This document shows, piece after piece, positions 9,720-64,000 of a DNA stretch of 64,000 nt. A program made the position numbers and the translations under genes. The stretch is from Eledone cirrhosa (taxonomy: Eukaryota), in the NCBI GenBank assembly GCA_964016885.1, contig OZ024740.1, forward strand, positions 131,688,001 to 131,752,000, in the 5' to 3' direction. Below the pieces are notes generated by a model that saw only the letters and a list, made by a program, of their open reading frames with translations, was not told the DNA's origin and did not search any database. Positions within the stretch are counted from its first letter, which is position 1. The number at the start of each line of letters is the position of its first letter.

Positions 9720-11340
9720 TGATCTGAATAATAAAAACAAACAAAAATGTATTCAGTTTGACATTGCCAGTTACTATTCTTCTATTTCGCCTTCACTCCT
9801 CAACAACGCTCTATCTTTCGCATTTAAATATTCTGATATTACCACAATTGAACTTTACATCATTCTCACCGCAAGAACAACTATCCTGGAATTCAACAAC
9901 GAATATTGGACTAGAGCTGATGCTTCCAACAATTTAGATATGACAATGGGTTCGTCGGATTCAGTGCAATTGCCGGACTAGATTGGTATCTTTATTTTGA
10001 ATTCTTTAAATCTGGAAATTCATCATCTTCGCGGTGGAATGACGATGCCCGTTTTACTGTCTTAAACTGTAACATAGTTAACCTTAATATTATTAAGAAT
10101 AATAAACTTGATCTATTTAAGCACCATAACCTAAAAATTGAATATGAAAACAACGTCAAACTAGCTAACTTCCTGGATATATCTCTTAATCTTCACACTG
10201 GCCTATATTACCCTTACCATAAATACAATGATAATCTAAATTATGTTAATTTTAAATCTAACCACCCCGTTAACGTTAAAAATGCTATAGTCAGTAATAT
10301 TGAAAAAATAATATCAAATCTATCCTATAATAAAGTTATCTTCGACGCTAATGCCAATTATTATAATAATGCGCTTTCCAAAGCCGGTTAATACAGTAAA
10401 GAAACCAATCATCGAAGGACTTATAGTAAAATAGTTAGTTATGAACACTCCATTAACTTAAATAAAAAACCTAGATACAAAAATATGATTTGGTACAACG
10501 TTCCTTTTTCTCTATCTATTACTAGTAATATTCCTAAACTATTTTTTAGGGCCTTAGATAAGTGCTTCCCTCCCTCGCATATCTATCGTAAGATCTTTAA
10601 CAAACATACAATCAAATTCTCTTATTCCACCACTTCCAACATCTCTAACATTATCTCTAAACATAATAACAAAATATTAAATAATAAATTATATCCATCC
10701 AACATTGAGCGTCATAATAATAGCAATAGTAAACCCAACGTCAATGTTAACTCTAGGCTAGATTCAGTAAATGTAAATACGACGTCAAAAGTAAATTTGT
10801 CGAATGTTCATAACACCAATCTAAATCTGGAAACTTTAGCACCTATCGTAAATAACTTCTCCAATCCAATTCCTTCTATAAATAATACTAGGTCACTTAT
10901 TAATAACTCTGGTAATTTCTCTAATCGTAATTGTAATTGCCCTGTTCGAACTAAATATCCTCTTAACCAATGTCTTGATAAACAATTAGTGTATGAATGT
11001 AAGGTACTAATTCGTTTACCGATTTTGGTTCCACTTCCACCTCCTTTAAAGCAAGATTTTATAATCACAATTCGTCTTTTAAATACCGACTTAAAATAAC
11101 TAACACGGCACTCTCAGAACTCATATGGTCCTTAAAAGACAAAAATATTAACTACAACATTTCTTGGAGGAAGGTTTGCAACGCCTCTCCTTACCGTAAT
11201 TCTTCCCTATCTAGAACATGTAATCTCTGCCTAGCCGAGAAATTTACCATTATCTCTAATTTTAATTATATAATAAAGAGACGTACGGATTCATTTTCGC
11301 TTTGCATAAATCCCATAGAACTTTCCACAAAGTATACCGC
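9720..11340 (+). mobile_element. Decayed Penelope-like element (RT + GIY-YIG endonuclease)
   Basis: Translates in pieces to IQFDIASYYSSIS, DMTMGSSDS, NFLDISLNL, SNHP, IWYNVPFS..FPPSHIYRKIFNKHTIKFSYS (ORF 10485-11099), CNC, LVYECKV, FKARFYNH, LSELIWSLK, CNLCLAEK. Confidence 0.85.
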
Positions 11341-14410: not shown

Positions 14411-14865
14411 TTTTTCCATAATATAAGAAGTTGGGACAGTGAAATTAAAAATATATATACATATATTTATTAAAATAACAGATTAAAGTTTAAGCAAAGA
14501 ATCGGTGCTCTCACCCTTATCGAGCCCTCTTTTGATTTTAGTCTTCAAATTTATTATTATTACTATATATATATATATATAGACGGAAAAAATGAAACGA
14601 AATTTCATTTCTCACTCTTAGTACGGCTGTTACTTAAATATAAGTATGTATACGTACATACATATATGTATACAGACGTAAAGTAGTATGTATATATATA
14701 TATATACATAGATGCACATATATATATATATATATATATATATGTACGTATGGATTCACCGAACATTTATTATAATGCTCGGTGTGTTTGTAAACACACA
14801 TCCCGAATTAAGCCGTACAGTGTCTAGCAACCATCGTTGCTCATTTGTTCACCACTGACAAAGGA

Positions 14866-14908
14866 ACGCTGTACTAGTTTCAAGCTTATTAGCTATCGTC
14901 AGCAACGT
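14866..14908 (-). ncRNA. Minimal type I hammerhead ribozyme
   Basis: Minus strand: ACGTTG-CTGACGA-TAGCT-aata-AGCTT-GAAA-CTAG-TA^-CAGCGT. Confidence 0.78.
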
Positions 14909-15253
14909 ATACCTTCCTGCTAGATGGTTGAACATCTGCATGTATATATTTTCCAGATGCATATTAACGGCTGAGCAGCTATATTTGTATATCGAGGGAG
15001 TTAATTGAGCGGGGTACCGAATACGATAAACGGAAAAAATGAAACGAAATTTCATTTCTCACACTTAATAATTATATTTAAGTAACAGCCGTACTAAGAG
15101 TGAGAAATGAAATTTCGTTTCATTTTTTCCGTTTATCGTTTTCGGTACCGCGGCCGATTAACTCATTCGATATGCAAATTAGGCTGGTCAGCCGTTAATA
15201 TGCATACGGAAAGTATATACTTTCAGACGTTGAACTATCTGGCTGGAAGGTAT

Positions 15254-15296
15254 ACGTTGCTGACGATAGCTAATAAGCTTGAAACTAGTACAGCGT
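15254..15296 (+). ncRNA. Minimal type I hammerhead ribozyme
   Basis: ACGTTG-CTGACGA-TAGCT-aata-AGCTT-GAAA-CTAG-TA^-CAGCGT. Confidence 0.78.
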
Positions 15297-15501
15297 TCCT
15301 TTGTCAGTGTTGAAAAAATGAGCAACGATGGTTGCTAGAAACTGTACGGCTTAATTCGGGATGTTTGTTTACAAACACACCGAACATTATAATAAAAGTT
15401 CGATGAATCCATACGTACATATATATATATGTGTGCACGTATGTATATATATATGCATACTACTGTACGTCTGTATACATATATGTATGTACGTATACAT
15501 A

Positions 15502-15588
<87 letters not shown>

Positions 15589-38729: not shown

Positions 38730-41700
38730 TGTGGGGCCCTTTCTGCCTGTGTGTTTGTTTGTTTATGTGTGTTCGTATACAGCGTGGTGATAATGCCACA
38801 CAAGGGCCAAGTGGGATGGCGGATCCACAGATGGCTATGTAAACATACATTCGCCAATCCTCGATAAGAGTGTTTAAATATCGAACATAAACAGTTCGAA
38901 TAACGGTGAAATGGAGACTAGAACGTCATGTGACAGACTCTCACCCAACAGGTGCCCCCTGGCTCAGCAGCAGGAACCTGACTGTCAACCAAATACTGCT
39001 GATGTTGGAGGAAGGAGAAGAAGGAAAGGGGCCAGAACCAACTGGACGAAAGAATTGAATAGAACTGTTATGCAATGCTACCTGAAAAGTAACCCCAAGG
39101 AGAGGGGCTACAGGAGACGGATGCATAACATCTGGAACGAGATTGGTTTATTTAAATTAGATGAACAAAAATTGGCCGGGCAGGCTCGGGTAATAAGAAC
39201 TAATGGGTGGATAAGCGAGCTGGAACTGGAGGAACTGAGCAGAGAGAATGGCTTGGAGATGGCGGGTGTAGTATGCCAGACAAGCGAGCCGGTGGGAAAT
39301 GAAGGTGAGGAGGTCCTGAGAACGGAGGAACCACCCGAAGCAGACAATGATCTGAATACTGAGATAAATAATACCTGGAACAGAGATACGGCCACTGAGG
39401 AGATGAATGCTGACGGGCTAGGACAAGATTCGGTTGACATCCTAAATTTAGTGGTAGATGAATTGAACAATGATAGTGGGAGACCTATGAACCTAAGATT
39501 TGTAGACAGGAAAAAGTTAAAAGAAACAACAGCTAAGGTAAACAAAGTCACCCCATACCTTGAGGCGAGGAGCCTTCACCAGTGCAACAATATCCTCAGA
39601 GCAACAGCAAATACGGTGAGGAAACTACTTGGTATAAAAGCGAGAGGAAACAACAGACAAGAAAGAGCAGAGCCGTGGTGGAAGAAGCGACTGAGTGGGC
39701 AAATCGGGGAAATGAGAAATGACATAGGAAAGCTTGAGTCACTACTGAATGGGACACTAAAAAACATAGGCACTAAAAATAGACTGGAAATAAAATACAA
39801 AACTAGGAGTAAAAAGCTAAATATTATCATAGAGGAATTGAAGCAACGCATTGTAGCAAAGAGTGCAAAAATCACGCGATACGAGAACAGAGTCAGTCAG
39901 TATAAACAGAACCGCATGTTCGACAACAACCAGAAGATGCTGTTTGGACAGCTTGAGGGCAAAGAAAGAGGCAACGACTTGATCCCTGGGGCGGAACAAA
40001 CTAAAACATTCTGGAGAGGAATATGGGAGCAGGATGTTAGACACAATGCCCAGGCAGGGTGGATTGAGACAGTACAGGGGGAGATCGGTGAGCAGGCACA
40101 GCAACAGACTGATTTGAGTATCACAGTTGAAACTCTTAAGGGGCAAGCCAAAAAACTAACCAACTGGAAATCACCAGGCCCAGATGGTGTGCAGGGGTAT
40201 TGGATTAAACATTTAACATCCCTCCACCCGAAGCTGACGGCCATGTTCAATGACTGCTTGGTGTCGGGTGAGGTGCCAGAGTGGTTGACAAAAGGTACCA
40301 CAGTTCTGATAATGAAAGACCGAATCAAGGGTAATGATGCTACCAACTATAGACCTATCACATGTCTGTCCGTAATGTGGAAACTGTTGACGAGCATTGT
40401 GTCTGAGGAAATCTACCATCACCTCCACACAAACAACTTGTTACCGGACGAACAGAAAGGATGCCGAAAGAAGTCACGTGGTACAAAGGACCAGTTGCTT
40501 ATTGATAAGATGGTAATGGGGAATTGCAGGAGGAGACACACTGATCTTGCAATGGGATGGATAGACTACAGAAAGGCATTTGACATGGTGCCTCATTCTT
40601 GGATCACCAAAAGCCTGGAGATCTTCAGGGTGGCAGATAACATCAGACAGTTGCTGGGCAGGAGTATGGGGTCCTGGGAGACAGAGTTGACATCAACTGG
40701 AGTATCCTTGAGAAGCGTGAAGATCAAGAGAGGTATCTTCCAGGGAGATAGCCTGTCCCCTCTGTTGTTTGTCCTGGCCCTGATGCCCTTGACCATTATG
40801 CTGCGAAAGGTGAGAGCAGGATACAAGTTGGGAAAGGGAGAGCTTACCATCAATCACCTCCTTAAGCTCTTCGGGAAAAGTGAGAAGGAGTTGGATGTGC
40901 TAGTTGACACTGTCCGTGTTTTCAGCAGTGATATATGTATGCAGTTTGGTATTAGTAAATGTGGAGTCATTGTGATGAAGAGGGGTAGGTTGAGCAGAAG
41001 TAACGGGATCCAGATACCAACAGGTGAGATGATAAAGGAAATTGACTCTGAGGAAGGATACAAGTATTTGGGCGTTCTGGACGCTGATGGCATAAAGAAC
41101 AAAAAAATGAAGGAATTTTTAAGAACTGAATACATTCGGAGAGTAAGGAGCGTATTGAAGTCACATCTGAACAGCAGAAATGCCATAAGCGCAGTAAATT
41201 CCCGAGCTGTGTCTATTATTAGGTACAGTGCGGGAATTCTGAGATGGAATGTTGCTGAACAAAAAGAAATGGATAGGAAGACTAGGAAGCTATTGACTAT
41301 CTACAACATGTTCCACAAGAGGAGTGATGTCGATAGACTCTACCTAAGGAGATCTGAGGGTGGAAGAGGTCTTATCAGCATAGAGGACTGTGTTCAGATG
41401 GAGAAAAACAACCTATACAAATACGTGACCTATAGTAAGGAGCCAATGCTCAGAACTGTACTGAAGGAGGGGACAGTAGGCCAGGAGATGTCCAAGGAGG
41501 AAATAACATCATGTAGGAAGAGCAGCCTTAAGGGAAAATCCCTTCATAGTACCTTCTTTGAGAAAACTGAATTTAGAGATCCACAGACATGGAACTGGTT
41601 GAGAAGAGGAGACCTCAAACAGGCTACAGAAGGAATGCTAATGGCTGCGCAGGAGCAGGCCCTCAAAACGAAGTGGTTGAAGCACCATATTTACAAGGAG

Positions 41701-42365
41701 AAGGCTAGCCCACTGTGCAGGATCTGTGGAGAGAGAGAGGAGACTGTGGCTCACATTGTGTCCGAGTGTAAACACCTAGCCCAGACCCACTATAAGGGCT
41801 GGAGACACGATATGATGGGCAGGGTGATCCACTGGCACCTGTGCAAAGTAAACAATTTACCACACTCTGAGAAATGGTATGAGCATAGGCCAGAGGCGGT
41901 GATGGAGAACAATCAGGTGAAGGTGCTGTGGGATTTTAGGATACAGACGGACAAAAAACTGGAACACAATAGACCTGACCTGGTGGTTGTGGACAAAGAA
42001 AAAAGATCGTGTCTGATTGTGGATGTGGCCTGCCCTTTCGACACGAGAGTGCAAGAGAAGGAGAGGGAGAAAATTAACCGATACCAGGACCTAAAGTGGG
42101 GGGTAAAAAGGATTTGGTACTGCCCTGATGTCAAAGTGATCCCGATTGTCATAGGCGCACTGGGGACTATCTCCAAAAGTTTCCAGGGATGGTTAAAGAA
42201 AATCGGCCCCGTCACGCTTTTTGGAACGCTTCAAAAGGCATGCTTGCTTGGAACAGCAAGAACCCTCCGATACATCCTGAATATCTGAGGCTGCAGGTAG
42301 TGACTTGATATTCATTCCAACGGACTTTCCAGTTAACCAAGATCAATGACTGAGATTCAAGGAAT
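38730..42365 (+). mobile_element. Near full-length R4/Dong-like retrotransposon family A
   Basis: Structured 5'UTR, single ORF, ~75-bp 3'UTR and (AAT)n tail; the 5' boundary is approximate. Confidence 0.92.
38911..42288 (+). CDS. R4-clade polyprotein: Myb-like N-terminus, RT lacking FMDD, CCHC knuckle, restriction-like endonuclease
   Basis: 1125-aa open frame; WKSPGPDG, NYRPITCL, QKGCR, WIDYRKAFD, GIFQGDSLSP, YKYLG, CRICGEREETVAHIVSEC, RHD, RPD..DV..EKINRY. Confidence 0.9.
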   Translation: METRTSCDRLSPNRCPLAQQQEPDCQPNTADVGGRRRRKGARTNWTKELNRTVMQCYLKSNPKERGYRRRMHNIWNEIGLFKLDEQKLAGQARVIRTNGWISELELEELSRENGLEMAGVVCQTSEPVGNEGEEVLRTEEPPEADNDLNTEINNTWNRDTATEEMNADGLGQDSVDILNLVVDELNNDSGRPMNLRFVDRKKLKETTAKVNKVTPYLEARSLHQCNNILRATANTVRKLLGIKARGNNRQERAEPWWKKRLSGQIGEMRNDIGKLESLLNGTLKNIGTKNRLEIKYKTRSKKLNIIIEELKQRIVAKSAKITRYENRVSQYKQNRMFDNNQKMLFGQLEGKERGNDLIPGAEQTKTFWRGIWEQDVRHNAQAGWIETVQGEIGEQAQQQTDLSITVETLKGQAKKLTNWKSPGPDGVQGYWIKHLTSLHPKLTAMFNDCLVSGEVPEWLTKGTTVLIMKDRIKGNDATNYRPITCLSVMWKLLTSIVSEEIYHHLHTNNLLPDEQKGCRKKSRGTKDQLLIDKMVMGNCRRRHTDLAMGWIDYRKAFDMVPHSWITKSLEIFRVADNIRQLLGRSMGSWETELTSTGVSLRSVKIKRGIFQGDSLSPLLFVLALMPLTIMLRKVRAGYKLGKGELTINHLLKLFGKSEKELDVLVDTVRVFSSDICMQFGISKCGVIVMKRGRLSRSNGIQIPTGEMIKEIDSEEGYKYLGVLDADGIKNKKMKEFLRTEYIRRVRSVLKSHLNSRNAISAVNSRAVSIIRYSAGILRWNVAEQKEMDRKTRKLLTIYNMFHKRSDVDRLYLRRSEGGRGLISIEDCVQMEKNNLYKYVTYSKEPMLRTVLKEGTVGQEMSKEEITSCRKSSLKGKSLHSTFFEKTEFRDPQTWNWLRRGDLKQATEGMLMAAQEQALKTKWLKHHIYKEKASPLCRICGEREETVAHIVSECKHLAQTHYKGWRHDMMGRVIHWHLCKVNNLPHSEKWYEHRPEAVMENNQVKVLWDFRIQTDKKLEHNRPDLVVVDKEKRSCLIVDVACPFDTRVQEKEREKINRYQDLKWGVKRIWYCPDVKVIPIVIGALGTISKSFQGWLKKIGPVTLFGTLQKACLLGTARTLRYILNI

Positions 42366-49082: not shown

Positions 49083-52000
49083 TTACAGACACATACTCAG
49101 AGAAGGCCCATTCATTCGGGCCATACTTGCTTCTCTCACCCATCTTTCAACAAAATGCTGGGAAGAGAGCACTTCCCTCTCTACCCTGATTTTCCTTTTC
49201 AAATGAAATTTGAAAAAGTTAATCAGGGCATCACCGAAGAGGTAAGTGCTCGTCTTCAGCCCTTTCAAACGTGTCCACCATACTATCTCTTTCGCCATGG
49301 CCACCAGACAGATAAAAACTGCCTGCCCTTCCAGGCTAAAGGAAGGGGGCGGGGCAATCCTCACGATGGACTCAGCTGATAGCTGGATAGGTCCTACACG
49401 TGACAGCAGGTGTTCGACATAAACCCACAAGTCAGCAATGCTCGGACACTGGACGAGTGCGTGCAGGACGGTTTCGTCGCCCTGCGCGCATCTCGAACAC
49501 GCCCGGATGACGGCACCTCCATGCCTGTAGAGTTTATCCCGAACTGGCAAAGCTCCTCGGTAGCACTGCCAGGCCAGGGATTTCTGGAAGTTGTCCATAG
49601 GCCGCGGCCCGAAAGTCCTTCCGAAGAGATTGGCTAGTTGATTTTCGTCGACGCCTAGAGTTTCTCCAAGTACGTCGTCGCTCTTCCCCTCCACTAATCC
49701 CCTATAGAACGCCAAGGTGGAGTTTCCACCGATCACATTGCCCGATTGGTCGAGGGCTGTGAGCGCCTGAAGACATTCCAGTCTCCAAGCGCTCCCTCTC
49801 GGTCTTCGCTTGACCCAGGACTGCAGCTCCGTCAAGGAGACGAGCTGGGGAAAAACGTGTCTTGCAAACGGCGACCACACCTGATCACCGTCGAGGAAGA
49901 GGTGGAGATGTCGTAGCCTGAGCGCGCGTCTGCGCATCATCAGCCACGGCATGCCCAGCCCTCCACGTAGCGGGTGTTGACAGCAGATGGACCGCCTGAC
50001 CATCGGAGCGCGTCCCTTCCACAAAAAGCGAAAGAGCAAACGCTCCAGCGCAGTCAGGCGGGGCTTAGGACAAGGTACGACGGTCAGGCGGTAGTAGATG
50101 ACGGATGCGATGTACGCATTCGCCACCTCCGCTCGACCTTTTAGGGATAGCTTCCTCTCGGCCCATTTCTGGGTGAGAGAAGCCACCCTGCTCGTCACCT
50201 CGTCCCAGTTTTTGTCCGTCTGGAGGTCTGGACCGAACCAGACCCCTAGCAATTTAACCGGTCCGTCCGTCCAGCGCCCGACGACGCTGTTGGACGGCAT
50301 GGACCTGCCTCTCCAGGTGCCGAGCTGCAGGCCCACTGACTTTTCCTGGTTGATCATTGCTCCTGTCACCGCTTCGTATTCTCTTAGTGTAGTGCCGATC
50401 GCCTCGATGTGTTTGGCGTTCGACACCACTACGGTGACATCGTCGGCATATGCTGACACGGATCTTCCGCATCCTAGTTCGCGCGGGACCCCCCTCAACG
50501 TCTCCAGTTTGAGCAGTAATGGCTCGAGAGTCAATACGTACAATAGGGACGAGAGGGGACATCCTTGGCGGACCGAGCGCATGATGTTGAACGGTTCCGA
50601 AAGGTGACCGTTCACTCTCACTACAGAGTAGATGTCGCTGTGCATGGCAGCGATCCAGCCTCTGAAGACTGGCCCAAAGCCAGCCGCCCTCAGGACTGCC
50701 ACTAGGTAACGATGGTCGACACTATCGAAGGCTTTCGACTGATCTAAATTGATCAAAGACCCACCCGTGCCAGGTTCCCTAGCTACCCTCTCTACGATGT
50801 ATCGCATGAGGTGGAGGTTGTCGTGAATGGATCTGTCGGGAATGGCGCATGTCTGTGCCTCTCCCACCAGACCACCAACGAGAAGCGCCAACCTCTTTGC
50901 TAGCACCTTGGCCAAAATCTTGAACTCTGTGTTTAGCAGAGTTATGGGCCTACAATTATCTATGTTATCCCCCTTGTTCGGATCCTTTCTCAGCAGCGCC
51001 ACCGCTCCTTGGCTCACAGAGCTGGGAATTCTCCCGTTCTGTTGCCAGTTGCAGTAGACGTCCGCCAAGAGGCCTCCGAACAAGTTTGGCATTTGTACGT
51101 AAAGTTCATAGGGCAGACCATCCAAACCAGGCGATTTGCCCCTTGTGCAACTAGTCATTGCATCCCGTACTTCAGCGGTTGTTATCGGCTTTTCGCAACA
51201 CTCCGCCTCAGTGGCCGAAAGCCGCGGCAGTCCGTCGAGGTAGACACTAAAGTCCATCCCTCGATCCGGCCCGCCACTGCCCCCGAACAGTTGAGCGAAG
51301 TGTCGCTGAAAAGCTTCACACATCTGCCCGGGATCGAGTAGCATGCGCCCGTCGTGGTCCACCAAAGACCGGATCGTGGCTTTGTTGCCACGACGCGCCT
51401 CCGCCACTCGGGCCCATTCAACGGCTTTCGTCCCCGCGTGTCTGAGAGCACGCACCCTAGCTCTGACAACGCAGCCTTCGTGCTTTGCATTGAAGAATTG
51501 GTCAAGGGCCAATTTCGCCGCAAGTACGTCGGTCGCGATGCCTTTGCTAAGCGCCTCATCTAATTTTCTAACTAATTCTCCCTCTGCTCTATTTTTCTCT
51601 ATTGCTAAAGTCTTACTAAACCTAATGGACTCTATTCTAATTGCTCTTTTCAGAGCAAACCACCACTTGTTGTTGACGATGGCCCCCGTCAACGCCCGCT
51701 TAACTAGTTCGCTAATCCGGTCTCTGTAGGCCTTGCGCGCTGGTAAGGACGCGTTTAGCTTCCAGTAGCCGGATCCTCGTCTATGAAGCCTATCTAAGTC
51801 AAGCACACAGATCACGAATTTGTGGTCCGTGTAGCTGACTATCTTGAATTGTGGACAGCCTATGCTAGACCTATCTATTTCCCTACAAAATACTCTATCT
51901 AGATATGATCTGGATGACCCTATGCCATTTGTCCAAGTCCACATTGGTACATTCGGGAAATCCATTCGGTACCTGTCAGACAGTTCAAAACGTCTGGGCA

Positions 52001-52502
52001 GGTTGGTGAGACTCTTGCACCCTCCTTCCCTATCCACTAATCCCACACAATCCCAGCGTGCATCTAAGATCCCGTTCCAGTCGCCCACTAACACTAAAGA
52101 GCGGGACGTTCCAAGAAAGGTCTCCAGACGCCGGAAGAAATCAGGCCGCCCTGCTCCTGTCGGGGCATAGACGGCCACTAACCTGAAAGCTTGCCCGTCT
52201 CCGCTGGTCACGTTCAGCACCACCAACTTACCTTCTGGGTCCAGGAAGATGGCCCGTATGGCAAGATCCAAACCTCTCCGAAAAAGCACAGCAACTCCTC
52301 CCCCCGATCCCGGACGGCTGGGAGATGCGTACACATCGTAGCCGCCGAAGATCGGTGCGAAAGCCTGTGCTTCGGAGATTCTGGTCTCGCTGATGGCCAC
52401 TACATCTATGTTTAGTGACCTGAGGTCGTTGAGCAGGTGGCCCTGCTTCCATGACGACCCCAAGCCACGCGCATTTATGCTGCCTATTCTGAGTGAGGTC
52501 AT
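49083..52502 (-). CDS. Tx1-like ORF2: APE endonuclease + reverse transcriptase + C-terminal Cys motif
   Basis: Uninterrupted from ATG 52502 (MTSLRIGSINARGL, SETR, VYAP, GDWN, YLDRV, TDH; KSPGLDG, DQSKAFD, VRQGCPLS, YADD, LLGV; CSRC..ETVLHALVQC). Confidence 0.93.
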   Translation of the reverse strand: MTSLRIGSINARGLGSSWKQGHLLNDLRSLNIDVVAISETRISEAQAFAPIFGGYDVYASPSRPGSGGGVAVLFRRGLDLAIRAIFLDPEGKLVVLNVTSGDGQAFRLVAVYAPTGAGRPDFFRRLETFLGTSRSLVLVGDWNGILDARWDCVGLVDREGGCKSLTNLPRRFELSDRYRMDFPNVPMWTWTNGIGSSRSYLDRVFCREIDRSSIGCPQFKIVSYTDHKFVICVLDLDRLHRRGSGYWKLNASLPARKAYRDRISELVKRALTGAIVNNKWWFALKRAIRIESIRFSKTLAIEKNRAEGELVRKLDEALSKGIATDVLAAKLALDQFFNAKHEGCVVRARVRALRHAGTKAVEWARVAEARRGNKATIRSLVDHDGRMLLDPGQMCEAFQRHFAQLFGGSGGPDRGMDFSVYLDGLPRLSATEAECCEKPITTAEVRDAMTSCTRGKSPGLDGLPYELYVQMPNLFGGLLADVYCNWQQNGRIPSSVSQGAVALLRKDPNKGDNIDNCRPITLLNTEFKILAKVLAKRLALLVGGLVGEAQTCAIPDRSIHDNLHLMRYIVERVAREPGTGGSLINLDQSKAFDSVDHRYLVAVLRAAGFGPVFRGWIAAMHSDIYSVVRVNGHLSEPFNIMRSVRQGCPLSSLLYVLTLEPLLLKLETLRGVPRELGCGRSVSAYADDVTVVVSNAKHIEAIGTTLREYEAVTGAMINQEKSVGLQLGTWRGRSMPSNSVVGRWTDGPVKLLGVWFGPDLQTDKNWDEVTSRVASLTQKWAERKLSLKGRAEVANAYIASVIYYRLTVVPCPKPRLTALERLLFRFLWKGRAPMVRRSICCQHPLRGGLGMPWLMMRRRALRLRHLHLFLDGDQVWSPFARHVFPQLVSLTELQSWVKRRPRGSAWRLECLQALTALDQSGNVIGGNSTLAFYRGLVEGKSDDVLGETLGVDENQLANLFGRTFGPRPMDNFQKSLAWQCYRGALPVRDKLYRHGGAVIRACSRCAQGDETVLHALVQCPSIADLWVYVEHLLSRVGPIQLSAESIVRIAPPPSFSLEGQAVFICLVAMAKEIVWWTRLKGLKTSTYLFGDALINFFKFHLKRKIRVEREVLSSQHFVERWVREASMARMNGPSLSMCL

Positions 52503-52536
52503 GTTGAAAAGGAGTGGAAAAGATGGGAAAGACAAC

Positions 52537-54535
52537 TTACCTTACTTCTCGTAGGGGAAGGACGGTTTTTCCATCCTTTTCACTGCTTGTGGCCTCCTCA
52601 GGAAGGATGTCCTTATAAATCCTCCTGGAGAGTGCTTGTCGGAAGTCTCCGATGTCTTTGGGGAATTTTTGTTTTAGTGTCATGTACGTTTTCTGTGTGA
52701 TGCGAGTGATTTGTATGTGTGGAGGTGGTGTGAATTTTGGGGTTGTTGTGTAGTCTTTTTCTGTGATGCTGGTGTTGTGTTGGATGTAGTGCAATAATTG
52801 TTTGTTGTTCAAATTTAATGCTGTGTAGTGTGTATCGTTTTGGTTGTTTTGTTTTGTTTGCGTTTGTTGTGGGTTTGTTTCTGTTTCGCATTTTGGTGAC
52901 TTTTGTGGTGTAGGTGATGGTGGTGTTGGAGTTAATGATGGTGATGGTGTTGGTGTTTGGGTTGATGGGGTTGGTGATGCTGGTGTGGATGGTGGCATAT
53001 CTGTCCTAACTTTTTTGTTTCTTAGTTTATTTGTTTCCCTCTGTATTTTGTTTTTGGAGGGGGAAGGAAGAGAATTTTTTCTTTTTTGGTTTCTTTTTTT
53101 TTTCCGGATATCGTTTCCCACTCCTCGTCGTCACAATCTGTCTCCAGTTGCGATAGGCCGGGGAGTGGAAAATCCTCCACAGCCGTTAGTTTTGGTTGTG
53201 GTGTGGTGGATGGTGTAGGCGCTGGTGCTAGTTCTGAAGCGTTGGGTGGTGGTGGTGTTGGTTTTGCTGGTGGTGGTAGTGGTGTTGGTTTTGCTACTGT
53301 TGCTGGGGTTGTTGCTGTTATAGTTGCTTCTGTTGTTGCTGCTACAGTTGTTGCTGGCATCTCTGCTACTGGTGGTGTTGATGGTTGTGTCACTGGGGTG
53401 GGTAGGAGAGGTGGCTTCAACCTTTTAGCCTGAGGGCAGAAAGCCCTTAGGTGGGTTCCTTCACCACAAACGACACACCTAGGTCTTCTGCCCTCGACAA
53501 TTACCGTGAGGTGGCTGCAGTCAGTGAGGTCTATTACCTCTGGGATCTCCTCAATGCTTTTTTGGTCCGCTTGGATCAGGAGCTCCATCCCAGATCCGGA
53601 CCAGTTTTCCTGCTTTTCTTTTGCTATTGTTATTATTTTCGTGTTGGCCTCGATGCCGGCGATGACAGCCGCTATTAGCCAGGGAATTTCGATGGCCGGT
53701 GGAACGTGGGTCACCCTGATCTTTACGAGTCTCTGGTCACAATAGCTTGGGACGAGTGTGAAGTCGTCACTTTTTAATGGGGCCATGGAGTGTTCTCTAG
53801 CCTCCTCTGGTGTTTCAAAGAGCACATCCACGGTTCCATACTTTTGCCCACGTCTGAAGTGGGTTTTTCTTGCCCACACATGTCCCAAAGCTTTTTGGAT
53901 TTGGGACTCGGATGCCCGTTCCACTCGGCGCGATTTTACATTTATTGTTCTATACGACACGGTGCATAGGCGCCGATGCTCCATTTTACTAGGTGGGGGG
54001 GGGGGGGTGAGGCTGACCCTGTACCCATCTTTCTTTACCATTTGTTTGGCATTTTCTAAATCTTCTTGTGTTACGGTAGATGCTTCGAATTGTTTTGCTA
54101 CTCTGGCGAAACTGAGGGGGGGGGGGGGGTGTTTATAATGTCATTGTTGTTGTTGTTGCTATCGTTAATATTAATTTTAGTTTCAGTTGTGGTGGTGACG
54201 TCAGTCGTCTTTGGTGGGGAAGAGTCCATTTTGCTTGATTTCATTTCGACATCACGAGTTAATTTATTTTTTTTTTATTTTGTTTCTGTTGTTGCGGTGG
54301 TGGTGGTGGTGGTGGTGGTTGTCACGGTGGTGGTGGTGGTGGAGGCTTTAACACCTGCAGTCATTGGTAATGGTGGGAAATGAATGTCTGCCTGAGACAA
54401 ATTTAAAATATTGCTACTGCTTATATTTTTTTTTGTGTTGGCAAAGGTAGTAACATTTACAATGGTGGTGTCGGTGTGAGGTGTTATTTTGTGAGGAAGG
54501 CTTTCAGCTGCTTCGTGCAGAGGTGAAGTAGCCAT
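52537..54535 (-). pseudogene. Tx1-like ORF1 (gag-like, CCHC zinc knuckle), interrupted
   Basis: Pieces 54275-54535, 53022-54041 (CVVCGEGTHLRAFC) and 52537-53121; one in-frame TAA inside an A-run and two frameshifts at homopolymers. Confidence 0.78.
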
Positions 54536-57083: not shown

Positions 57084-58317
57084 AATAATAATAATACTGC
57101 TGCTGCTGTTAGTGCCATTTTGGTGACCAGTCTGCTCTCTGTCTTCAGCCGAAGAACAACTCGTATTCTCCTTTCTTAAGTCTTAATATTTAAATCTTGC
57201 TGAAGTCGTTCTTTTCTAAAATTTCTCATTTCAATTTTAAATTACAAGACAAGGAAAAAGTTTTCAAACTGAACATTGCAAATGTTGTTGAACATTTTCC
57301 TCGTATTGATTATACGGCATTTAAATTTACAACGTTATTTTTTTCATATATACATATCTGATAACCTCCTATTTCATGAGAATTGATACAACGTTGAATG
57401 TCACAAAATCATTAATGCTTCATGCAAAATTGCACCTAAACAATTACAAATAGTGTGTTGTACTTATACATACACACACCGAAATTATATATTTTCTTAT
57501 AATATATATTCCTGTTTGTCTGCTTCAGCTATACTTTACACCACTGCTTCCTTCTAGAATGAAATTCAATATGCTTTAGCAAGTCATCGTTGGTGATATT
57601 TATAGGCCATCACACATTGGCAGATTTTCAAGCATGTATGTGCAAACATTAGTTGCATCTGTAAGATATATTACATTTTATAAAGATAATGAATTATTCC
57701 CGGAGAATAAAAATCTAATGGAGAAACAGAAGCAAGAGACCAATTTTAGTTTTCAGAGTTACACACTCATATGTCACATAAATCATAGTCTGTTGAGGTT
57801 CGATTGGTTAACATAGGTGGAAAGTCAATGTATGTAAAAATCAACGCATGAATAATACGGACTATGAATATTTCATGTGCAAATATACTTGCGTAAATTT
57901 ATGTTTATTTATTTTGCATCGGTTCAACTTCCTGAGTTTACAGTTCGAAGTTAGCTGACTTGGTAAATATTTACAAAACAAAATAGAACAGTTCTGACAA
58001 GGCAAACATCTTGTAAATGCCAGTGAGAAAAAATTGTACAGACTTTAAGTGAAACGGACACTATTCAATGTAGCACTTACTGCAGTTAATACACAGTATG
58101 ATACATTGGAGACGGGGTGTGTATAAATACCATTAATAAAGTAATAGCAGCCTTGCCTTGATACTGGTAGTGCAGAAATCGCTTTATTTTTGTGACATAC
58201 GTTATTGACATACAAATTTATGACGTGGCATCATACACTTAGTCACACACATTTACACACACGCTCATAAATATATACATATATATCTATATATATATAT
58301 ATATATGTATATCTATA

Positions 58318-58375
<58 letters not shown>

Positions 58376-58486
58376 TTGAAAAAAATGAAAACGAAATTTC
58401 ATTTCTCACTCTTAGTATGGCACTTACTTAAATGTAAGTATGCATGCATACGTACATACATATATGTATACAGACGTACAGTAGCA

Positions 58487-58546
<60 letters not shown>

Positions 58547-58724
58547 CACATATATATACACATATGCATACAGGTACACATACATATATGCACGCATCAG
58601 TTTAGCCGACGTTTATTATAACGCCTGCTTTGTTCGTTTGTTTGTCAACAAATCGAACAGCCTGAATTTATGCCATACGGTGTTAAGGCAACCACGTCAC
58701 CTTTTCGTTCAACACTGACACTGG

Positions 58725-58769
58725 AACGATGTTCTAGTTTCAAGCTTGTTAGCTTTCATCAGCACCGTT
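58725..58769 (-). ncRNA. Hammerhead ribozyme, unit 1 (cleavage triplet mutated GUA>GAA)
   Basis: AACGGTG-CTGATGA-AAGCT-aaca-AGCTT-GAAA-CTAG-AA-CATCGTT. Confidence 0.65.
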
Positions 58770-59003
58770 TACCCATCTGCCAGATAGTTGAACGTTCGAA
58801 AGTATATACTTTCCTTATGAAAATTAACGGCTGAGCAGCCTAATTTGCATATTGAGTGAGTTAAATCGGTCAGGCATACCGAAAACGATAAGTTGAAAAA
58901 AATGAAAACGAAATTTCATTTCTCACTCTTAGTATGGCACTTACTTAAATGTAAGTATGCATGCATACGTACATACATATATGTATACAGACGTACAGTA
59001 GCA

Positions 59004-59057
<54 letters not shown>

Positions 59058-59227
59058 TATACACATATGCATACAGGTACACATACATATATGCACGCAT
59101 CAGTTTAGCCGACGTTTATTATAACGCCTGCTTTGTTCGTTTGTTTGTCAACAAATCGGACAGCCTGAATTTATGCCATACGGTGTTAAGGCAACCACGT
59201 CACCTTTTTGTTCAACACTGACACAGG

Positions 59228-59272
59228 AACGATGTACTAGTTTCAAGCTTATTAGCTATCATCAGCACCGTT
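59228..59272 (-). ncRNA. Hammerhead ribozyme, unit 2
   Basis: AACGGTG-CTGATGA-TAGCT-aata-AGCTT-GAAA-CTAG-TA^-CATCGTT. Confidence 0.8.
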
Positions 59273-59708
59273 TACCCATCTGCCAGATAGTTGAACGTTC
59301 GAAAGTATATACTTTCCTTATGAAAATTAACGGCTGAGCAGCCTAATTTGCATATTGAGTGAGTTAAATCGGTCAGGCATACCGAAAACGATAAGTTGAA
59401 AAAAATGAAAACGAAATTTCATTTCTCACTCTTAGTATGGCACTTACTTAAATGTAAGTATGCATGCATACGTACATACATATATGTATACAGACGTACA
59501 GTAGCACGCATATATATATATATATATATACACATATATATACACATATGCATACAGGTACACATACATATATGCACGCATCAGTTTAGCCGACGTTTAT
59601 TATAACGCCTGCTTTGTTCGTTTGTTTGTCAACAAATCGAACAGCCTGAATTTATGCCATACGGTGTTAAGGCAACCACGTCACCTTTTTGTTCAACACT
59701 GACACAGG

Positions 59709-59753
59709 AACGATGTACTAGTTTCAAGCTTGTTAGCTATCATCAGCACCGTT
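59709..59753 (-). ncRNA. Hammerhead ribozyme, unit 3
   Basis: AACGGTG-CTGATGA-TAGCT-aaca-AGCTT-GAAA-CTAG-TA^-CATCGTT. Confidence 0.8.
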
Positions 59754-59987
59754 TACCCATCTGCCAGATAGTTGAACGTTCGAAAGTATATACTTTCCTT
59801 ATGAAAATTAACGGCTGAGCAGCCTAATTTGCATATTGAGTGAGTTAAATCGGTCAGGCATACCGAAAACGATAAGTTGAAAAAAATGAAAACGAAATTT
59901 CATTTCTCACTCTTAGTATGGCACTTACTTAAATGTAAGTATGCATGCATACGTACATACATATATGTATACAGACGTACAGTAGCA

Positions 59988-60031
<44 letters not shown>

Positions 60032-60201
60032 TATACACATATGCATACAGGTACACATACATATATGCACGCATCAGTTTAGCCGACGTTTATTATAACG
60101 CCTGCTTTGTTCGTTTGTTTGTCAACAAATCGAACAGCCTGAATTTATGCCATACGGTGTTAAGGCAACCACGTCACCTTTTTGTTCAACACTGACACAG
60201 G

Positions 60202-60246
60202 AACGATGTACTAGTTTCAAGCTTGTTAGCTATCATCAGCACCGTT
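60202..60246 (-). ncRNA. Hammerhead ribozyme, unit 4
   Basis: Same motif as unit 3. Confidence 0.8.
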
Positions 60247-60480
60247 TACCCATCTGCCAGATAGTTGAACGTTCGAAAGTATATACTTTCCTTATGAAAA
60301 TTAACGGCTGAGCAGCCTAATTTGCATATTGAGTGAGTTAAATCGGTCAGGCATACCGAAAACGATAAGTTGAAAAAAATGAAAACGAAATTTCATTTCT
60401 CACTCTTAGTATGGCACTTACTTAAATGTAAGTATGCATGCATACGTACATACATATATGTATACAGACGTACAGTAGCA

Positions 60481-60532
<52 letters not shown>

Positions 60533-60702
60533 TATACACATATGCATACAGGTACACATACATATATGCACGCATCAGTTTAGCCGACGTTTATTATAAC
60601 GCCTGCTTTGTTCGTTTGTTTGTCAACAAATCGAACATCCTGAATTTATGCCATACGGTGTTAAGGCAACCACGTCACCTTTTTGTTCAACACTGACACA
60701 GG

Positions 60703-60747
60703 AACGATGTACTAGTTTCAAGCTTGTTAGCTATCATCAGCACCGTT
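60703..60747 (-). ncRNA. Hammerhead ribozyme, unit 5
   Basis: Same motif as unit 3. Confidence 0.8.
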
Positions 60748-60981
60748 TACCCATCTGCCAGATAGTTGAACGTTCGAAAGTATATACTTTCCTTATGAAA
60801 ATTAACGGCTGAGCAGCCTAATTTGCATATTGAGTGAGTTAAATCGGTCAGGCATACCAAAAACGATAAGTTGAAAAAAATGAAAACGAAATTTCATTTC
60901 TCACTCTTAGTATGGCACTTACTTAAATGTAAGTATGCATGCATATGTACATACATATATGTATACAGACGTACAGTAGCA

Positions 60982-61025
<44 letters not shown>

Positions 61026-61195
61026 TATACACATATGCATACAGGTACACATACATATATGCACGCATCAGTTTAGCCGACGTTTATTATAACGCCTGCT
61101 TTGTTCGTTTGTTTGTCAACAAATCGAACAGCCTGAATTTATGCCATACGGTGTTAAGGCAACCACGTCACCTTTTTGTTCAACACTGACACAGG

Positions 61196-61240
61196 AACGA
61201 TGTACTAGTTTGAAGCTTGTTAGCTATCATCAGCACCGTT
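61196..61240 (-). ncRNA. Hammerhead ribozyme, unit 6 (G12>C, probably inactive)
   Basis: GAAA reads CAAA (plus strand tttg). Confidence 0.6.
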
Positions 61241-61355
61241 TACCCATCTGCCAGATAGTTGAACGTTCGAAAGTATATAAATTAGGCTGCTCAGCCGTTA
61301 ATTTTCATAAGGAAAGTATATACTTTCGAACGTTCAACTATCTGGCAGATGGGTA

Positions 61356-61400
61356 AACGGTGCTGATGATAGCTAACAAGCTTGAAACTAGTACATCGTT
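61356..61400 (+). ncRNA. Hammerhead ribozyme in the inverted monomer
   Basis: aacggtg-ctgatga-tagct-aaca-agctt-gaaa-ctag-ta^-catcgtt. Confidence 0.8.
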
Positions 61401-61570
61401 CCTGTGTCAGTGTTGAACAAAAAGGTGACGTGGTTGCCTTAACACCGTATGGCATAAATTCAGGCTGTTCGATTTGTTGACAAACAAACGAACAAAGCAG
61501 GCGTTATAATAAACGTCGGCTAAACTGATGCGTGCATATATGTATGTGTACCTGTATGCATATGTGTATA

Positions 61571-61608
<38 letters not shown>

Positions 61609-61664
61609 TGCTACTGTACGTCTGTATACATATATGTATGTACGTATGCATGCATACTTACATT

Positions 61665-61714
<50 letters not shown>

Positions 61715-62089: not shown

Positions 62090-62135
62090 TAAAAGGCCAA
62101 TTGAATATTGTAATAAATCTTTGGTAAACCCATAC

Positions 62136-62199
<64 letters not shown>

Positions 62200-62295
62200 T
62201 ACTGTACGTCTGTATACATATGTGTATGTATGTATACATACTTACATTTAAGTATCAGCCGTACTAAGAGTGAGAAATGAAATTTCACTTTTTTC
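62090..62295 (-). repeat. Further diverged fragment of the ~490-bp repeat family
   Basis: cagccgtactaagagtgagaaatgaaattt and ccatacgtacatata match the 14.6-15.5 kb copy. Confidence 0.7.
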
Positions 62296-62299
62296 CATT

Positions 62300-63080
62300 T
62301 ATATGTATAGTGGTGGATCACTGGTTGGTAATATCCGTAGGGGTAGAAGTGGTTACACAACAGTTAGTTTAACATACCGAGAACAATTGTTTCGCCTTAG
62401 CGGATCCTCAGCTCGTAATGGGCATGGTTATAGGAACAGATAGGACAACGATACGAACGCGCATGCACATGAACCCGGTTACCTAACACAGGCATTACTA
62501 GAATTCGTGCAAGACATGTAACGGAGATAACTGCGAAAGTCCGAACATTTTTACTTGAAAATAAAATTAGAAGGAATCAGTCCGGAGCATTCTAGTTAAG
62601 CAATAGGTGTTTGGCGACGTGTGGACAACGTGTGAAAAATTCATTTTTCGTGTTTAAGCAATAACTATTGCGTAATCTCTTTAGAATAGTTATTCGTTGG
62701 TCAATACATAAGCCACAGGTCGGAATTCCCATTGCGTATGGCTGGACTTAGTGATGAATTTCCATCGGATGGAGTAGTCTATACTTGAGTCCTTGAGGGA
62801 CCATACGTGGCTCGCGAGTTTCGTGGATGAACGTCTGTCCGGGTGCCTGAAGGTAGACTGGTGGTTCAGGAAACGTTCCTTAAATCGGCCCTCTGCCATG
62901 CCCACATAGGATTTGACCTCCTGTGGTTCGGTTGGTCGGTTGGAAGTGACCAAGCTTCATACATTACAGCTGGTGTGTCGCATTGCTGTTGAAATAGGCA
63001 AGCTTCGGGCTAAATGGCAAGAGAACCCTGGCGGCGTGTTGCTCCTAGGGCTGGTGGTGTTGTGGGCCTTCATGTTCTTA
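62300..63080 (-). mobile_element. Penelope-like element 3' fragment (GIY-YIG endonuclease)
   Basis: ORF 62690-62953: SYVGMAEGRFKERFLNHQSTFR..LASHVWSLK..YSIRW; followed by a hammerhead motif. Confidence 0.8.
62378..62415 (-). ncRNA. Minimal hammerhead ribozyme at the 3' end of a Penelope-like element
   Basis: Minus strand: CGAG-CTGAGGA-TCC-gctaa-GGC-GAAA-CAATTG-TT^-CTCG. Confidence 0.65.
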
Positions 63081-63563: not shown

Positions 63564-64000
63564 TTAGTTTCTGAATTGGCAACATGACCCTCCCAAAGTA
63601 TAACAATATATATATATATATATAACAATATATATATATATAATGTAGGGGGTGAGTTTTATTGTAGCACACTAAATCAATGCAAATATCGGATAAGTAG
63701 CACTCCACAGTTTATAGGACTGGAGTATAAGTAATATAAGATCAAAAGATGGTTAAAATAGTTACATGTATTTTATTATGCGCATTGCAAAAACGAATAT
63801 CATCATGCGATGATATTTGCGTTCCCATCAGATACAATAGGGAGAAATTATATGAAGCTTAAAAAACACTTGCGAGCAGTGAAGTGTTAAATCAACATAT
63901 GAAAAATAAAGTAAGATGGATATATGAGATTGGGAAAAAAGGAGGAGGGGGGGAGGAAAAGCTAAGGAAGAGTAAGAAAGAAAGTAAAGGATGACTTATA

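Follow-up and report, generated by a model that had tools for sequence, protein, structure and literature searches.

A non-LTR retrozyme family in Eledone cirrhosa whose insertions carry the end signature of Penelope-like elements

A single insertion of a dispersed young repeat family is evident between two (TA)n microsatellites in the stretch of Eledone cirrhosa DNA analysed here (contig OZ024740.1, positions 131,688,001 to 131,752,000; 64,000 nucleotides, hereafter the window), and its parts are listed in Table 1. The minus-strand array at 58372-61279 has a tandem period of about 493 and comprises five full units (517, 503, 481, 493, and 501 bp) with a partial unit of 413 bp; the variation in unit length comes from an internal (TA)n tract, without which the units measure 461 bp (467 for unit 1); over 461 positions, units 2-5 show only 0-4 differences from one another. 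The first-pass annotation described six head-to-tail, near-identical, non-coding monomers: the tandem order, the lack of coding capacity, and the likeness of units 2-5 all stand, but the sixth unit is partial, and the purely head-to-tail description overlooked a seventh, inverted arm (61279-61666) with an intact plus-strand motif. Across two consecutive natural units no ATG-started ORF exceeds 70 aa, and an autonomous Penelope-like element (PLE) was rejected as a candidate because the unit does not contain the RT plus GIY-YIG ORF of such an element; an LTR layout is likewise absent from the insertions whose arms were scored.

Table 1. Features of the insertion, in positions of the window
Feature	Position	Strand	Remarks
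(TA)n microsatellite, left end, target site	58267..58371	.	repeat tract
Left arm, 5 full units + 5'-truncated innermost unit	58372..61279	-	outer (3') end = LONG site at 58372, running into (TA)n
57-nt 'tail' between SHORT and LONG end sites	58372..58428	-	at this insertion end only; tail concept from PMC8557442, PMC11167929
Hammerhead copy 1	58707..58793	-	C3 at 58762; GAA at cleavage site, ACTAGA; predicted inactive
Hammerhead copy 2	59210..59296	-	intact core; predicted cut after 59235
Hammerhead copy 3, extended helix I	59691..59777	-	intact core; predicted cut after 59716
Hammerhead copy 4	60184..60270	-	intact core; predicted cut after 60209
Hammerhead copy 5	60685..60771	-	intact core; predicted cut after 60710
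Hammerhead copy 6	61178..61264	-	C3 at 61233; CAAA replaces GAAA; predicted inactive
Inverted right arm, monomer positions 43-424	61279..61666	+	outer (3') end = SHORT site, running into (TA)n
Hammerhead of inverted arm	61332..61418	+	C3 at 61363; intact core; predicted cut after 61393
(TA)n microsatellite, right end, target site	61667..61710	.	repeat tract

Stem I, CTGATGA, and stem II are present in all six minus-strand copies and GUA in five of them, just as the first-pass annotation had it. An intact hammerhead in every monomer, which it also claimed, is contradicted by copy 6 (CAAA) and copy 1 (GAA and ACTAGA), leaving four of the six intact; these are the consecutive copies 2-5, so that three monomers (501, 493, and 481 nt) could be released. 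Elsewhere in the window lie two long LINE-type ORFs, one with an RVT_1 domain (38878-42285) and one with endonuclease, RT, and zf-RVT domains (49086-52541).

The family extends far beyond this insertion. A search with the core pattern returned 24,786 matches genome-wide and none in the reversed control, indicating that the motif is not a chance occurrence; the exact motif of the window has 8,271 copies, and an independent motif outside the ribozyme has 19,368. The label 'satellite' had to be dropped, since this is a dispersed family of short arrays with a median of 1.5 units per insertion. Two subfamilies can be distinguished, A with units of ~480 nt and B with units of ~422 nt, and there is a sister family with a 310-bp unit and about 9,600 motifs. 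Younger insertions are somewhat longer (rho 0.30, p 0.005, n=89), and some arrays (L035, L100, L104) have been re-duplicated as DNA. Every unit has, upstream of the ribozyme, a small hairpin with a TATA-like motif (59785-59805) that both subfamilies keep; judged by its sequence, this motif is a possible internal promoter.

Several related loci were seen along the way. An older two-armed subfamily-B insertion with LONG and SHORT ends (these terms are defined below) occupies 14580-15511 of the window, with cores at -14902 and +15260, and a B-like 3' fragment at 62108-62286 adjoins a different hammerhead family (62108-62450 region; core at -62411, palindromic stem III) that also occurs at L150 and has two end sites ~64 nt apart. 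The 310-bp sister family (L032:200-1500, L105, L112) is two-armed, with arrays of more than 25 units and end sites ~32 nt apart. At least four further hammerhead families (L035, L043, L078, L086, L095, L118) were noticed, several with a U.U pair at the base of stem II.

The hammerhead has a helix I of 6 bp, extended by three further helices, a helix II of 4 bp, and a palindromic helix III of 1-2 bp. Helix sizes of this kind define the canonical metazoan type, whose working form is a dimer, and in the minimal hammerhead of PLEs helix II has 7-8 bp, helix I has 4-5 bp, and loop 1 is poorly defined (both PMC4209133). By its predicted helices the ribozyme is thus a canonical type I hammerhead and not a minimal one, as it had first been called; the accompanying suggestion that it works as a dimer through its palindromic stem III agrees with the weak palindromic stem III seen here and with the same source. 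The Rfam hammerhead models, put forward as a check on the assignment, did not recover the motif at gathering score: the best hammerhead match in a 131-nt search is HH9 at 18.5 bits (E 0.019; gathering score 52), and an E-value scan of 4.1 kb had no hammerhead among the 150 of 196 matches listed, all of them chance hairpin or TA matches. Circles of the monomer fold with z-scores of -9.6 (A) and -8.7 (B), both inflated by the TA hairpin, while the MFE of the monomer is 8.4 kcal/mol below its cleavage-competent fold and self-pairing of the stem III hexamer is scored at -4.8. Slow cleavage is to be expected from the U.U pair that closes stem II and from the weakness of stem III; this and the cost of the competent fold count against the explanation that we favour below.

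We assessed conservation of the structure in a 38-row alignment consisting of 35 rows hand-picked from 94 distinct family stretches, one window copy, and two sister-family rows. Base pairing is found in 95.2% of cells and double-sided change in 15 of 29 pairs, with 14 of these 15 dependent on the two sister-family rows; one pair (G.U, A-U, U.G) covaries inside the family. The hammerhead structure is kept across the subfamilies and the sister family. In 65 insertions chosen by a motif outside the ribozyme, recurrent variants occur in none of 11 core columns as against 40 of 116 other columns (p 0.013, a nominal value as columns are not independent), whereas rare variants are equally frequent in the core (10/711, 1.4%) and outside it (95/7489, 1.3%). 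Recurrent variation in the cleavage triplet is confined to the exchange of GUA and GUU, and the core is intact in 81 of 89 units. A core with no recurrent variants and an ordinary share of rare ones is expected if the ribozyme is needed for propagation and decays after insertion.

To describe how copies are inserted, we scored 102 insertions that are at least 150 bp long and not cut by a locus edge (from 13 loci chosen for 100% identity to the window, the two insertions in the window, and, for the remainder, the first places listed on C1). Two divergent arms, one of them inverted and 5'-truncated, make up 52 of the 102; 49 are one-armed and one is complex. Of 155 outer ends, 127 lie at one or other of two fixed internal sites, here called LONG and SHORT, and 106 of these 127 run into TA repeats; the spacing of the sites is 57 nt in A and 55 nt in B. 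The two sites are paired almost without exception: among two-armed insertions with both ends classifiable, 35 of 36 are LONG+SHORT, one is LONG+LONG, and none is SHORT+SHORT, or 34 of 35 LONG+SHORT after dropping one duplicate (p 1e-9 against independent choice), the 16 other two-armed insertions having at least one unclassified end. Junction overlap (n=39) is 1-2 nt in 11 cases, more in three, and none in one, with 24 unresolved or carrying inserted bases. The sole LONG+LONG case is L031, and at L031, L042, L060, and L097 flanking DNA is duplicated in inverted orientation on both sides of the insertion.

Hallmarks of PLEs include inverted truncated arms, a tail confined to one end, and (TA)n targets (PMC8557442, PMC3846280), and their combination here amounts to a PLE-type insertion layout. 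A purified PLE protein, predicted to be a dimer, can cut as well as extend both strands in vitro; its RT has two internal start sites, which delimit the tail (PMC11167929). The arms, the end sites, and the LONG/SHORT pairing all support the original suggestion of a non-autonomous tandem hammerhead retroelement that is likely moved by a Penelope-type RT; the viroid-like, circRNA-forming nature also put forward there is a prediction.

Candidate partners are resident in the genome. There are two abundant PLE families, one Hydra-like (DKT/RW motifs) and one Neptune/Nematis-like (DKSG, Cys linker); copies within the sampled families are ~98% alike, and the named protein that best matches a resident RT is from Octopus vulgaris, at 69%. 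An RT/GIY-YIG family of the same genome has LONG+SHORT pairing in 7/7 pairs found and a tail of 60 nt, which, set against the 55-57 nt of the retrozyme, is only a hint as to the partner. Comparison of the monomer with the two sampled PLE families revealed no shared sequence beyond retrozymes inserted beside them, and among the PLE loci examined we found no autonomous element sharing monomer sequence, which counts against the favoured explanation; the 5' flanks of one-armed copies held no recognisable retrozyme/PLE hybrid insertion. One apparent hybrid, at L097, was rejected, since the retrozyme there has inserted within an old PLE frame; this one-armed copy (L097:6076-6975) sits outside a microsatellite and has an apparent 9-bp target duplication. 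Other PLE sequences were recorded in passing: an abundant Hydra-like PLE of 713 aa (L139-L148; 32,826 first-look candidates, tail ~88 nt by eye) with no hammerhead core seen beside its ORF and, in the window, a SHORT end of the RT/GIY-YIG family at 63580-63622, which passes into (TA)n, and decayed PLE-like RT fragments (9921-11096) that have no Pfam match and resemble the Hydra-like family by eye.

The arms themselves carry information on the template from which they were copied. In subfamily A (17 insertions, 103 units), 47 variants are fixed in all covering units, 20 of them across both arms, and only 8 are partial, with a further 110 confined to a single unit, of which 97 are private. Subfamily B is older and noisier, and its many shared single-unit variants (159) mean that uniformity of the template is clear only in the young A arrays. 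The arms of one insertion disagree in 6 of 307 informative cells in A and 56 of 682 in B, where 88 and 220 disagreements, respectively, would be expected from other arms, a comparison that mixes ages and whose outcome would be no different if each cell had one dominant source locus. Arms run through the predicted cut site as many as 11 times; at this site 225 of 226 units are free of indels, and none of 124 inner ends lies within 5 nt of it (~3 expected if uniform), which speaks against a cleaved linear monomer as the template. In 11 of 34 insertions the arms are not nested, neither being contained in the other, and the longer arm is LONG in 19 and SHORT in 15. Together, the shared variants, the clean crossing of the cut site, and the non-nested arms point to one monomer that was read repeatedly from two sites, and so favour a circle.

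With copy number, layout, end sites, LONG/SHORT pairing, template uniformity, and core conservation as observed, we consider it likely that the family is a dispersed non-LTR retrozyme for which a Penelope-like RT/GIY-YIG enzyme, provided in trans, copies a predicted RNA circle of ~480 nt. Arrays would be transcribed, and neighbouring hammerheads, paired through their palindromic stem III, would cut out monomers for a host ligase to circularise (cf. PMC7229834). A (TA)n tract would then be nicked on both strands by PLE protein, and each target end would prime reverse transcription at one of the two fixed internal sites, which lie 55-57 nt from each other, with each RT circling the same template for a variable distance and so producing tandem units. 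Joining of the truncated inner ends would give the anatomy that we see, two divergent arms of which one has a tail and the other does not. Results from other systems count against this reading: ribozyme cleavage is not required in the only in-vitro PLE system, where unprocessed RNA is the main template (PMC11167929), and 8 of 9 Xenopus retrozyme dimers remained uncleaved in vitro (10.64898/2026.07.22.740005).

As to how the two arms arise, we tentatively propose paired priming on a single ribozyme-made circle, in which a dimeric Penelope-type RT would engage both start sites at once, one per target end, with both enzymes rolling. If true, one step would explain the one-end tail of PLEs, the inverted arm, and the tandems of retrozymes, and would provide direct evidence that retrozymes parasitise PLEs through circles. 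The second arm could instead be made, from the same element and by the same enzyme, by fold-back (self-priming) on the first cDNA, which the endonuclease would free at the other site. Self-priming has been proposed for inverted PLE arms (PMC3846280) and endonuclease resolution for the tail (PMC8557442); such copying would account for variants common to both arms, and 23 of 34 two-armed insertions are compatible with it, with symmetric junctions in 5. The non-nested arms rule out simple fold-back in the remaining 11, the longer arm may be of either kind, and PLE protein extends both strands in vitro (PMC11167929), so we regard fold-back as unlikely to be the general route.

Paired priming and fold-back share a template, and two further accounts replace it. 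An uncleaved linear read-through transcript could be copied, with the hammerhead serving RNA stability or expression and the arrays homogenised as DNA. This would fit the clean junctions, the absence of ends at the cut site, the existence of DNA-level duplications, and the predominance of unprocessed RNA among PLE substrates in vitro (PMC11167929); we nonetheless think it improbable, given that variants fixed across units and arms would require a one-monomer bottleneck followed by re-expansion and that the core is conserved only among propagating lineages. Cleaved linear monomers copied by a telomerase-like RT with end-to-end template jumps would supply both the monomer bottleneck and the core conservation, but the lack of inner ends and of scars at the cut site makes this very unlikely. 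An ordinary satellite expanded by unequal crossing-over from a fossil PLE end, with the hammerhead as a passenger, is a model raised in the 2026 preprint (10.64898/2026.07.22.740005) and matches the tandem layout, but it is hardly credible in the face of thousands of dispersed short insertions with fixed ends and multimers in both arms, the somewhat greater length of younger insertions, and a core spared by subfamily changes.

On its sequence the family is a non-LTR retrozyme. Like the animal retrozymes of coral, mussel, and axolotl or newt (PMC7229834; 10.64898/2026.07.22.740005), it consists of low-GC, non-coding tandem units that each hold a single canonical type I hammerhead, it is present in thousands of copies alongside PLEs, and its predicted circle is highly paired; its stem III resembles that of axolotl HHR_Amex1, and the U.U pair closing stem II is as in HHR_Amex2 (PMC7229834). 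The unit of 420-520 nt is at the upper end of the 150-450 bp first reported for retrozymes (PMC7229834) and lies inside the range of 51-972 bp given in the preprint (10.64898/2026.07.22.740005). The retrozyme class and its proposed dependence on PLEs are already published: movement of animal retrozymes through circular RNA by PLE enzymes was proposed in 2020 (PMC7229834), and the preprint backs the dependence by distribution and phylogeny while leaving the mechanism open (10.64898/2026.07.22.740005). The two-armed inverted layout, the (TA)n targeting, and the two fixed end sites are not described for animal retrozymes in the consulted sections of these two sources. Likewise, we found no published account, in main texts, of this family, of a PLE end signature on retrozyme insertions, or of the one-long-one-short rule, although supplementary lists may hold cephalopod retrozymes; a squid genome paper only counted hammerheads (235). 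The present family displays the PLE signature on retrozyme insertions themselves and in countable numbers, and it brings to light tens of thousands of hammerheads in one genome that Rfam missed.

With EN+ PLEs the family shares the inverted 5'-truncated arm, the tail at one end, the microsatellite target, and two internal start sites downstream of the hammerhead (PMC8557442, PMC3846280, PMC11167929, PMC4209133). It differs from them, as they are described there, in having no ORF, in repeating the whole unit where PLEs are built as pLTR-ORF-pLTR, in its canonical rather than minimal hammerhead, and in a tail of 55-57 nt as against 30-40. The rule of one long and one short end is sharp and lends itself to testing with the in-vitro PLE system that already exists. 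In L1 twin priming, the two target ends prime on a single RNA and an inversion is left behind. The mechanism proposed here would share both features; unlike in L1, both primers would start at fixed neighbouring sites, both arms can be multimers, and there is no poly(A).
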